12,885 nucleotides of DNA from Nanobdellota archaeon (GTDB lineage: Archaea; Nanobdellota; Nanobdellia; SCGC-AAA011-G17; JACPNG01): contig JBBSWJ010000015.1 in the NCBI GenBank assembly GCA_038046345.1, positions 1 through 12,885 of the forward strand, in the 5' to 3' direction. Every line of letters begins with the position of its first letter. Positions within the stretch are counted from its first letter, which is position 1. The translations under genes and the position numbers were made by a program. Under the pieces are notes generated by a model. That model was not told the origin of the DNA. It saw only the letters and a program-made list of their open reading frames with translations, and searched no databases. This document shows positions 11,010 through 12,860 of this stretch, piece after piece.

Positions 11010-11068
11010 CTATATATTTTCGAGCAACGCCATTGTGAGTCTATTGTCCTAGCCCGCCCGCTTATTGA

Positions 11069-11153
11069 AACTAACGTATGCGATTATCTGAAGTTTCACG
11101 AAGTGAAATTTGGGGATTTTTCGCAGGAAAATTCCAGATAATCGCTGTTAGGC
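11069..11153. mobile_element. Integron attC-like recombination site (AACTAAC ... GTTAGGC) with a three-way-junction fold
   Basis: CTAAC(11071-75)/GTTAG(11147-51); perfect 11-bp stem GCGATTATCTG(11080-90)/CAGATAATCGC(11135-45); two inner hairpins with GAA and GCA triloops. GTTAGGC matches the GTTRRRY core. Spacer lengths are non-canonical. Confidence 0.65.
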
Positions 11154-11231
11154 GTCCCGAACGAAGTGAGAGCCTGCAAGGCGTGGTCGGAGCAATTTTG
11201 AAAAAATTGCGGAGAAGTCGGTTTCGGGCGC
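11146..11231. repeat. Left inverted-repeat arm of the purB unit (TGTTAGGCGT ... TCGGTTTCGGGCGC) with internal GNA-triloop hairpins
   Basis: 11146-11155 is the exact reverse complement of 12681-12690. 11218-11231 is the exact reverse complement of 12665-12678. Confidence 0.85.
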
Positions 11232-11238
11232 GGAACAT

Positions 11239-11251
11239 AAATATTTATAAA
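11239..11251 (+). promoter_or_regulatory. purB promoter (AAATA-TTTATAAA), leaderless transcript predicted
   Basis: TTTATAAA at 11244-11251 starts 30 nt before ATG 11274. The same 13-mer AAATATTTATAAA occurs at 10634-10646. No SD motif. Confidence 0.7.
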
Positions 11252-11273
11252 ATTAAGAGCAATTCCTGTTTAT

Positions 11274-12665
11274 ATGGATAAATTAGAAGCAATTAGTCCG
11301 ATTGATGGGAGATATAGAAGACATACAGAACCATTAGCAGATATTTTTAGCGAAAAAAGTTTAATTAGATATAGAATAAAAGTTGAGGTGGAGTATTTGT
11401 TATTTCTATCTGAACATCCTCAAATTGGAACTAGAAAATTTTCTGGTGAGGAGAAAGATTTAATCAGAAGATTATCTGATGTTTCCACAGAAGATGCTGA
11501 CGTTGTTAAAGCAATTGAAGTTAATGGTTATGGAAATATTAAAGCAACAAACCATGATGTTAAAGCAGTAGAACATTTTATGAAAGAGAAATTAAGAGGA
11601 ACTTCGCTTGAAGATTCATTAGAATGGATTCACTTTGCTTTAACTTCTGAAGATGTCAATAATCTTACTTATGGCTTAATGCTTTCTGACGGCGTTGAAA
11701 AAGTAGTCTTGCCGAGTATTGAAGAATTATATGAAACAATTGAAGGATTGGCTCAACAATATAAAGATGTTCCAATGCTGGCAAGAACTCATGGACAACC
11801 AGCATCACCAACAACTTTCGGAAAAGAGTTTAAGGTTTTTGCTTCAAGACTGAGACGACAGTTAGATCAATTAGGAACTTATGAAATTCTTGTTAAGTTA
11901 AATGGAGCTACCGGAAATTATAATGCCCATCAAATTGCTTATTCTGAAGTAGATTGGGTAAGGTTTACGAGAGATTTTGTTGAAAGACTTAATGATGGAA
12001 GAAAAATGCGACTAAAGCCTAATTTAGTAACAACACAAATAGAGTCTCATGATACTTATGCAGAATTATTCGACAATTTACGGAGATTAAATACTATCCT
12101 TATTAGCTTTGACCAAGATATGTGGAGATATGTTAGCGATGATTGGATCAAGCAAAAACCTGTTGAAGGGGAAGTTGGTTCTTCAACAATGCCGCATAAG
12201 GTAAACCCAATAGATTTTGAGAATAGTGAAGGGAATTTAGGACTGGCAAATGCTCTATTTGGCCATTTTGCAACAAAATTGCCAATATCGAGACTCCAGA
12301 GAGATTTATCTGATTCTACGGTTGAAAGAAATTTTGGTGTGGCTTTAGGACACAGCATTATCGGATATAAATCTGCACAAAAAGGATTAAGCAAAATCGC
12401 TGTAAATGAGCAGAAAGTTGTTGAGGAATTGGAAAATCATCCAGAAGTAATATCCGAAGCAATTCAGACAGTTCTCAGAAGAGAAGGAGCAGTAATGCCC
12501 TATGAACAATTAAAAGAATTAACCAGAGGAAGAAAGCCAACAATGGATGATCTCAGAACATTTATTGATGAATTGGATGTTTCCGATACAGTTAAAGAAG
12601 AATTAAGGCAGATCTCTCCAACAAACTATACAGGAATTGCTCGTCTTCTAGTAGAAACTCAATAG
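11274..12665 (+). CDS. purB: Adenylosuccinate lyase, E. coli/proteobacterial-type subfamily
   Basis: AISPIDGRY, TNHDVKAVE, IHFALTSED, MLARTHGQPASPTT, signature SSTMPHKVNPIDFENSEGN, SRLQRDLSDSTV, PYEQLKELTRG. Confidence 0.97.
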   Translation: MDKLEAISPIDGRYRRHTEPLADIFSEKSLIRYRIKVEVEYLLFLSEHPQIGTRKFSGEEKDLIRRLSDVSTEDADVVKAIEVNGYGNIKATNHDVKAVEHFMKEKLRGTSLEDSLEWIHFALTSEDVNNLTYGLMLSDGVEKVVLPSIEELYETIEGLAQQYKDVPMLARTHGQPASPTTFGKEFKVFASRLRRQLDQLGTYEILVKLNGATGNYNAHQIAYSEVDWVRFTRDFVERLNDGRKMRLKPNLVTTQIESHDTYAELFDNLRRLNTILISFDQDMWRYVSDDWIKQKPVEGEVGSSTMPHKVNPIDFENSEGNLGLANALFGHFATKLPISRLQRDLSDSTVERNFGVALGHSIIGYKSAQKGLSKIAVNEQKVVEELENHPEVISEAIQTVLRREGAVMPYEQLKELTRGRKPTMDDLRTFIDELDVSDTVKEELRQISPTNYTGIARLLVETQ

Positions 12666-12690
12666 CGCCCGAAACCGATTACGCCTAACA
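12665..12690. repeat. Right inverted-repeat arm of the purB unit (GCGCCCGAAACCGA-TT-ACGCCTAACA)
   Basis: Starts on the last base of the purB TAG. Exact reverse complement of two blocks of the left arm, without the roughly 60 nt that separates them there. Confidence 0.85.
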
Positions 12691-12747
12691 ACTATTAAAC
12701 GAATATTTATCTCGCTTAATATCAATATTTGGGATAAAAAGCGAGAT
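12683..12747 (+). mobile_element. Second, degenerate or truncated attC-like site
   Basis: GCCTAAC fits RYYYAAC. ATTAAACG(12694-701)/CGCTTAAT(12713-20) pair 7 of 8. Alternative stem ATCTCGCTT(12709-17)/AAGCGAGAT(12739-47). No intact GTTRRRY right end. Confidence 0.45.
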
Positions 12748-12836
12748 TTTGTAAACTTGTCCTGAGTAATAAATTATATGGCAGAAGATAGCAGAGGTTA
12801 TTTATTTGAAGAGGGGCATAAACTTATTGATGTGTA

Positions 12837-12860
12837 ATCAGGTGACATATGTCACCAGAT
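12837..12860. repeat. Palindrome GGTGACATATGTCACC (perfect 16 bp, 12841-12856) with imperfect extension
   Basis: Self-complementary 16-mer; ATC/GAT pair beyond an A-A mismatch. It also contains GGTGA and an ATG at 12849 whose frame runs off the window. Confidence 0.6.

Follow-up and report, generated by a model that had tools for sequence, protein, structure and literature searches.

A purB gene and its promoter as probable cargo of an integron-like cassette in a Nanobdellota archaeon

The window analysed here, a stretch of 12,885 nucleotides (nt) from a Nanobdellota archaeon, is an entire contig (C15) of an 821-kb genome with 34% G+C and an estimated completeness of 97%. Toward its right end lies purB (11274-12665, plus strand), the gene of a 463-amino-acid (aa) adenylosuccinate lyase, whose uninterrupted full-length open reading frame (ORF) contains the Lyase_1 (1.8e-49) and ASL_C (3.5e-46) domains, both above their cut-offs. 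A predicted TATA/BRE-like promoter, the 13-mer AAATATTTATAAA (11239-11251, plus strand), lies 23-35 nt before the ATG, and gene and promoter together are enclosed by nested inverted repeats that give them the appearance of a cassette; this unit is the subject of the present work. In what follows, G000 is this genome, G with another number denotes other genomes, L with a number related loci, and C with a number contigs.

Two of the inverted repeats had been described in an earlier note on the window, and both are exact: an outer one of 10 bp, TGTTAGGCGT (11146-11155) and ACGCCTAACA (12681-12690), and an inner one of 14 bp, TCGGTTTCGGGCGC (11218-11231) and GCGCCCGAAACCGA (12665-12678). The inner left arm stops 7 nt short of the promoter 13-mer and the inner right arm begins at the G of the TAG stop codon (12663-12665), and the cargo between the inner arms is the promoter and the purB ORF alone. 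The arm cores match GTTRRRY / RYYYAAC, and the first bases of the unit are complementary to its own inverse core, as in gene cassettes, again in agreement with what had been claimed. An inverted repeat of 10 nt with arms at least 1 kb apart is the modal result of shuffling, so the outer pair by itself carries no weight; repeats of at least 14 nt arose in 3 of 300 shuffles. The 14-mer and 10-mer arms are collinear, with 2 nt between them on the right side, and recur letter for letter at purB in other assemblies (L199, L200), which places the repeats beyond chance. A third nested repeat, absent from the earlier note, spans 16 nt with one mismatch (11257-11272 / 12627-12642). It pairs the stretch right before the purB ATG with the codons for YTGIAR near the 3' end, and is kept with a 1-nt bulge in G010 and in weaker form in L033 and L034.

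Homology limits, together with the restoration of a host repeat on in-silico deletion, place the inserted cassette at 11075-12688 (1,614 nt). The idea of a cassette-like unit therefore stands, while the limits first given to it, 11146-12690, do not: the cassette takes in, as its recombination site, an attC-like imperfect palindrome of 85 nt, AACTAAC ... GTTAGGC (11069-11153), and the outer right arm (12681-12690) overruns the cassette end at 12688. The palindrome holds an 11-bp inner stem (11080-11090 / 11134-11144) and two GNA-triloop hairpins; set against an attC, it has an inner stem, but its spacers measure 1 and 4-5 nt. Compared with a site in G011 it amounts to a 67-nt insert within the spacer. 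We considered this 67-nt palindromic module as a separate empty cassette and dropped the idea, since the module accompanies purB in L199 and L195.

Overlapping the palindrome is a core of dif/attI type, ATTCCAGATAA TCGCTG TTAGGCGTCCC (11131-11158, plus strand), which includes the outer left arm. Its geometry is 11-6-11 with TAA-N6-TTA; both this geometry and its left arm fit the dif site of Pyrococcus abyssi, and it is the second-best weight-matrix match in the genome. Next to it (11159-11217, plus strand) come the accessory hairpins GCCT-GCA-AGGC and GCAATTTT-GAA-AAAATTGC with the motif CCCGAACGAAGTGAGAG, which recurs next to array sites across the order; a hairpin flank motif, CCCGAACGAAGTGAGAGCC...GCA...CGTGG, is common to sites in G011, G023, G094, G068, G139 and others. 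A run of 43 nt (11144-11186) is 100% identical in G011, which belongs to another genus. The left strand of the closing stem, the inner left arm on the plus strand, is identical in L199 and matches at 13 of 14 positions in L200. At the right end of the cassette (12665-12688, plus strand), the other strand of the closing stem, GCGCCCGAAACCGA at 12665-12678, is joined to the arm ATTACGCCTAA at 12678-12688. A second core site, 12678-12705, thus lies on the far side of purB, in direct orientation to the first. Written by the integron convention, the cassette lies on the minus strand, starting with TTAGGCGT at 12688 and ending with the palindrome (11153 to 11069). It is the single cassette in the window, and purB reads away from the palindrome; this backward orientation fits the possession of a promoter of its own.

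The cassette splits a dispersed repeat of about 100 nt that is present in six copies in this genome, five uninterrupted and one interrupted by purB. The left half of the interrupted repeat ('type 2'), a GC-rich stretch followed by the arm ATTGAAACTAA (11052-11074, plus strand), aligns to the 5' part of the five uninterrupted copies, and its ATTGAAACTAACG is identical to the G011 site. The right half, CAACTA followed by TTAAACGAATA, a TATA-like box, the hairpin ATCTCGCTT...AAGCGAGAT and a T run (12689-12767, plus strand), was assigned to the repeat family by an nhmmer match. The uninterrupted copies are found at C5:36090-36196, C5:38869-38978, C5:28832-28932(-), C22:21908-22014(-) and C14:8735-8826 (repeat-copy positions C5:36106, C5:38886, C5:28917(-), C22:21998(-) and C14:8751), and each shows a variable GC-rich stretch, then ATTGNANNTAA CAACTA TTAAGYGAGAT. 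When 11074 was joined in silico to 12689, the resulting sequence scored 49.7 bits on a model of the other five copies, as against 40.2 for the sequence that actually follows; this better score of the joined repeat (...ATTGAAACTAA + CAACTATTAAACG...) leads us to take 11075-12688 as an insertion at TAA↓CAAC (here and below, arrows mark the junction). No empty allele of the purB locus was found by synteny, and the neighbouring 108-aa gene has homologues in only 2 of 150 genomes, with no conserved gene order. A search for further copies of the arms, which the earlier note had suggested, recovered them in other assemblies, along with the uninterrupted, 'empty' host repeats of the same genome; the arm sequences themselves are unique within this genome.

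Besides a TATA-like box and a T run, each host-repeat copy has two hairpins that exclude each other, and the copies lie upstream of unrelated genes, among them the S13 operon, NAC, a nuclease and a glycosyltransferase. After the repeat in the window comes a 19-codon ORF, MAEDSRGYLFEEGHKLIDV (12778-12837), which may be meaningless; other copies have short ORFs or gene starts at the same distance downstream.

We compared nine related loci from relatives and metagenomes, encoding PurB at 83-88% amino-acid identity, and found nine different neighbourhoods. Homology with the window ends at 12687-12690 in seven of them and begins at 11064-11144 in five (L199, L195, L200, L203, L033), so that the breakpoints coincide within 1-3 bases across independent loci. 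The 25 nt from 12665 (to 12689) are identical at all 25 positions among the window, L199 and L200, whereas the coding sequence is 83.8% identical; the left end is 87-90% identical (L199, L200). A C follows TAA in seven of eight right junctions, which on the opposite strand is G↓TT, the crossover rule of integrons, and in seven of the eight related right junctions the minus-strand unit accordingly begins with TTAGGCGT after a G. Left junctions read ...ATACG↓TTAG or ...GATG↓TTAA. 

An insertion within a gene is seen in L199 (GCA_053536695.1; L199:2252-4102), where a purB unit with identical arms interrupts a DUF2683 antitoxin gene at the target site GTGATTAA↓CATCGTC. Excision of the segment between ...GTGATTAACATC and GTCAAGG... 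gives an in-frame protein of 78 aa that aligns without gaps to an intact homologue. The downstream piece of the antitoxin gene has gained an ATG at the junction (target CATC to CATG) and may still be expressed; a recombinase fragment of 178 aa lies about 800 nt upstream. Across the loci, the window, L199 and L200 have kept their cassette features intact; decay is partial in L195, L033, L202 and L203, and G010, L191 and L197 have lost the features on the left side. This pattern looks like the repeated domestication of a once mobile gene. The TATA/BRE-like box is retained with purB in G010, L033, L195, L197, L199 and L200.

The finished cassette is thus common to several genomes at about 84% nucleotide identity, and is therefore old. 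Nor is a recent import of its cargo from bacteria supported, because this type of purB is widespread in Nanoarchaeota: at 65-88% identity it forms over 100 clusters, most of which carry the name Nanoarchaeota or Woesearchaeota. Among close relatives the gene is patchy, being present in 3 of the 16 genomes of the family. In more distant lineages (L036, L007) purA lies directly upstream of purB; purA (PF00709) was not found in the present, 97%-complete genome, where purB stands without its usual partner in AMP synthesis.

When the two cassette ends are rejoined in silico, the resulting 190 nt fold with DNA parameters at -54 kcal/mol for the top strand and -49 for the bottom strand, against averages of about -20 and -17 for shuffled sequences (z about -10). 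In the predicted fold the inner arms form a closing stem of 14-15 bp and the outer arms a 10-bp stem, ACGCCTAACG on TGTTAGGCGT, in which GCCTAAC and GTTAGGC pair perfectly; the 11-bp inner stem and hairpins with GAA and GCA triloops form as well. As modelled, the inverted repeats are the complementary halves of one folded recombination site, parted by integration, and they would bracket the cargo because integration split those halves. The cargo lies outside the hairpin, between the strands of the closing stem, and not at a hairpin apex, where the earlier note had imagined the transcription unit to have been inserted. The rejoined symmetric site ACGCCTAA-N6-TTAGGCGT was not found in 240 genomes of the order, the search returning only ordinary dif-like sites, two of them adjoining xerA.

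Related sites were surveyed in 151 genomes of the order. The pattern ATTGNANNTAANNNNTGTTA has about 160 matches in 69 of them, compared with about 25 for the reversed control, and these matches are grouped in co-oriented arrays; a site-only weight matrix is by itself not specific enough, since shuffled genomes reach 24 bits. Most of the sites are bare 28-bp cores with the consensus ATTGNANNTAA, 6 nt, then TTA..., and several match the left arm of the P. abyssi dif at 10 of 11 positions. A stretch of 3.5 kb in G023 contains seven sites that delimit small cassettes (MazE, DUF7557+ParE, RHH+PIN), and a XerA-family recombinase of 275 aa is encoded 480 nt downstream of the array (contig C8). Array-adjacent enzymes of relatives score 230 bits as XerA (cut-off 220) and lack the IntI-specific stretch; with the IntI model TIGR02249, those of G023 match in two pieces (209 bits). 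Further arrays carry ParE, DUF2683, a methyltransferase and a YhfC protease, and the cargo of the arrays consists mostly of toxin-antitoxin genes. Some co-oriented site pairs have no ORF between them (72 nt apart in G040:C5, 82 nt in G077:C66, 108 nt in G038:C72, 159 nt in G068:C21 and 191 nt in G023:C8) and may represent composite sites or cassettes without cargo.

By identity to the G023 enzyme, the recombinases of these genomes split into two classes. The first (46-57%) occurs in about 47 of the 151 genomes, and the second (33-43%) is ordinary XerA, including the gene on contig C20 of the present genome. A co-oriented site lies at most 1.5 kb upstream of 9 of 30 first-class genes, where a rough estimate from the background rate predicts fewer than one, and the class is present in 23 of the 36 genomes with at least two strict sites as opposed to 26 of the 115 others, in a sample of related genomes that are not independent. 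The ends of the cassettes follow a shared pattern too: in 8 of 20 array cassettes, 9-13 nt within the 20 nt before a site are complementary to the flank of the previous site, compared with 0 of 20 for the site's own flank and 0.75% in random pairings. Complementary cassette ends are thus the rule in the family's arrays, and in the purB cassette the complementarity from end to start reaches 14 nt.

No IntI was found in the genome of the window: TIGR02249 matches its single full tyrosine recombinase (C20) only as model segments 1-179 and 238-315 (107 + 96 bits, cut-off 265), skipping the IntI-specific region, and the same gene (C20:12108-12914) is a XerA at 263 bits. A near-perfect palindromic dif-like site, GGTTCGCATAA TGTATC TTATGCGAACT (C20:11966-11993; L107:1074-1101), lies about 115 nt upstream of this xerA. 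An extra half-site stands just before it, and similar sites adjoin xerA in G074 and G084. Some relatives have ordinary dif arms (TCGCCTAA) that look similar to those of the purB cassette, ACGCCTAA. An array directly upstream of a XerA-like paralog is not present in this genome. There is, however, a 55-aa C-terminal recombinase remnant (C5:99517-99660(-)), whose C-terminal motif resembles the array-type class; ahead of it on the same strand stand two family sites (C35:1001-1028(-) and C5:100014-100041(-)), about 1.07 kb apart across the C5/C35 joint, and together these look like a decayed array platform. Along the contig chain C5-C35-C12-C15 of the assembly, the remnant is about 56 kb from purB. 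With a fourth family site at the end of C19, all four family sites lie within about 1.7 kb of contig ends, as might be expected if the assembly was broken by repeats or population variation.

Taken together, we consider it probable that a mobile gene cassette, behaving like an integron cassette and carrying purB with its promoter as cargo, was integrated by a tyrosine recombinase at a matching target. In such a process, the two ends of a free circular cassette would join into one folded recombination site with the junction ACGCCTAA↓CGTATGCGATT (...GATTACGCCTAA↓CGTATGCGATTATC...), and the target would be an empty site, ATTGAAACTAA↓CAACTATTAAACG (...CTTATTGAAACTAA↓CAACTATTAAACG...), with CAACTA on the spacer side. 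With a cut at TAA↓C, which reads G↓TT on the opposite strand, the recombinase would join the circle into the host repeat, splitting the folded site and leaving its complementary halves as inverted repeats around the cargo. The enzyme would most likely be a XerA-like paralog of the type found beside the arrays of relatives. Since this genome keeps only the 55-aa remnant of such a recombinase, the purB cassette is probably stranded in it.

Several observations weigh against this explanation. The spacers of the two sites flanking purB differ (TCGCTG and CAACTA), which an ordinary two-strand Xer exchange would not tolerate; the difference argues for a single-strand exchange at TAA↓C, which replication would then resolve, over a two-strand reaction. 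The genome has neither IntI nor a complete recombinase of the array type, and its full XerA adjoins a dif with arms unlike those of the cassette. In the assemblies, which are the only data searched, no circular junction, no empty allele of this locus and no inverted form was seen, and the assembly itself comes to a dead end at the right edge of the window, 195 nt beyond the cassette. The association of sites with first-class recombinases is partial, 21 of the 30 genes having no site inside 1.5 kb by the same pattern, and the genomes compared are related and so are not independent samples. Finally, ordinary recombination between dispersed repeats could produce some of the mosaics.

This last process could be extended to the whole locus, the repeats then having been left by rearrangements (duplication, deletion, homologous or microhomology recombination) between dispersed structured repeats near purB, with no site-specific mobility at all. 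The genome does hold several dispersed repeat families that share the ATTGNANNTAA module, its family sites are all near contig ends, and cassette features are decayed in L033, L202, L203 and L197. Yet such rearrangements would have to account for the same breakpoints, to within 1-3 bases, in independent loci, for an exact and in-frame insertion into DUF2683, and for cassette ends more conserved than the coding sequence; a remnant of tandem duplication upstream of purB was also looked for and left no trace (alignment score 14, shuffle mean 16.6). We hold this account to be improbable. A classical integron cassette deserves more consideration, although we still judge it unlikely: the palindrome would be a true attC, moved by the IntI of a past time or of another cell, and the cassette would now be alone. 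The perfectly pairing GCCTAAC and GTTAGGC fit RYYYAAC / GTTRRRY, the crossover is G↓TT on the complementary strand, a second inner stem exists, the L199 unit was inserted at a secondary GTT site inside a gene, and archaeal integrons and integrase-less attC clusters have been published for the phylum (PMC9668308). The integron reading of the earlier note nevertheless gives way at the enzyme, as no IntI is present, the C20 protein falls below the TIGR02249 cut-off and lacks the IntI-specific domain, and the array-adjacent enzymes of relatives belong to the XerA family, likewise without that stretch. It also fits poorly with the sites, most of which are bare 28-bp cores too short for an attC, with the additional closing stem and accessory hairpins that are foreign to attC, and with a cassette that carries its own promoter and an ORF directed away from the site.

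The three nested complementary pairs around the gene might also act in RNA, the arms forming a long 5'-3' helix that encloses the purB message and controls its stability, processing or circularisation. However, a transcript from the purB TATA box would lack the left arms, because the box lies inside them; G010, L191 and L197 retain purB and promoter without left arms; no bulge-helix-bulge processing stem occurs in the helix; and the GC-rich stretch 11050-11235 gave noise matches only to Rfam families. Such a role is very improbable. We give hardly any credence to a cassette still in the making or to an invertible switch between inward-facing sites, both of which the earlier note had raised. 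Removal of the cargo would indeed leave a palindromic element, and in related arrays some site pairs stand only 70-190 nt apart and enclose no cargo, but a 'snapshot of assembly' is at odds with a finished cassette shared by several genomes at about 84% nucleotide identity and with a cargo outside the hairpin, and inversion with two core sites that are direct repeats and with related loci of which none of the nine is inverted.

Other candidates for the GC-rich stretch and its symmetry were tried and set aside. A split or permuted 5S rRNA was suggested by CCCGAAC...GAAGTGAGAG, but the genome's true 5S, at C34:11322-11438 (72.6 bits), is unrelated; SRP RNA and RNase P RNA are both located elsewhere in the genome; and an apparently covarying hairpin of a structured RNA (CTAAC/GTTAG as against GACATAA/TTATGTC in G002 and G004) is the two-fold symmetry of the recombinase site. 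Elsewhere, a split RpoB, RpoA'/A'' and RpoH are encoded, and a tRNA at 9414-9531 (minus strand) of the window, with a 51-nt insertion in the anticodon region, scores 44.6 bits in Rfam and is not called by ARAGORN.

The cassette proposed here can be set beside three known systems. Integrons are the textbook system of gene capture. With their cassettes, the purB unit and its family share units of one gene whose boundary is an imperfect, foldable palindrome with RYYYAAC / GTTRRRY cores, the G↓TT crossover, first bases complementary to the cassette's own inverse core, arrays rich in toxin-antitoxin genes, and the use of secondary GTT sites for insertion. Both integrons and attC clusters lacking an integrase have been reported from this very phylum (Ghaly et al., 2022, PMC9668308). 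Here, in contrast, there is no IntI, and the neighbouring enzymes of relatives lack the IntI-specific domain; most family sites are 28-bp cores of dif geometry; the purB site is extended by further hairpins and by a closing stem specific to the cassette; the recombinase is downstream of the array on the same strand and not divergent; and the purB cassette has a promoter of its own and is directed away from the site.

Gene modules between Xer sites (dif modules) have been published for Acinetobacter plasmids (PMC6449649, PMC7399989). Together with dif-integrating elements, for example CTX phage, they resemble the present family in their 11-6-11 cores with TAA-N6-TTA and in small gene modules between such sites that carry no recombinase of their own. 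In CTX phage, a folded single strand can act as an Xer substrate, as is proposed here. The dif modules differ in being flanked by sites of alternating orientation, whereas those of purB are direct; the target here is, unlike that of dif-integrating elements, not the chromosomal dif, which adjoins xerA and has different arms; and it is a dedicated paralog, not the housekeeping enzyme, that adjoins the arrays. As for archaeal XerA/dif, the P. abyssi site in experimental use is ATTGGATATAA TCGGCC TTATATCTAAA (PMC2958812; PMC4640148); up to 10 of the 11 positions agree between the left arms ATTGGATATAA and ATTGNANNTAA, the spacers are alike in having 6 bp, and the dif of Thermococcales is also flanked by conserved sequences and inverted repeats (PMC2958812, PMC4640148). 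An archaeal dif is, however, single and serves dimer resolution, whereas here there are many copies per genome, in arrays with cargo between them. Our literature search found no description of archaeal arrays on dif-type cores beside XerA-like genes.

More tentatively, DPANN archaea may run a gene-capture system of their own, with a dedicated XerA paralog and a dif-type core within an attC-like fold, either as an independent invention or as a relative of integrons. The purB locus bears on how far the principle of gene capture reaches beyond IntI, as an unusually clean archaeal case: it adds base-exact cassette ends, a target, an insertion that falls within a gene of a relative, and a metabolic gene as cargo together with its promoter, and it offers filled and empty sites, with ends that stay identical while the cargo drifts. 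The exact donor (ACGCCTAA↓CGTATGCGATT) and target (ATTGAAACTAA↓CAACTA or GTGATTAA↓CATCGTC) sequences make the proposed Xer-type reaction testable in vitro. For the organisms themselves, a housekeeping-type enzyme that would travel with its own archaeal promoter fits a picture of mobile single genes topping up the patchy metabolism of reduced, host-dependent cells.

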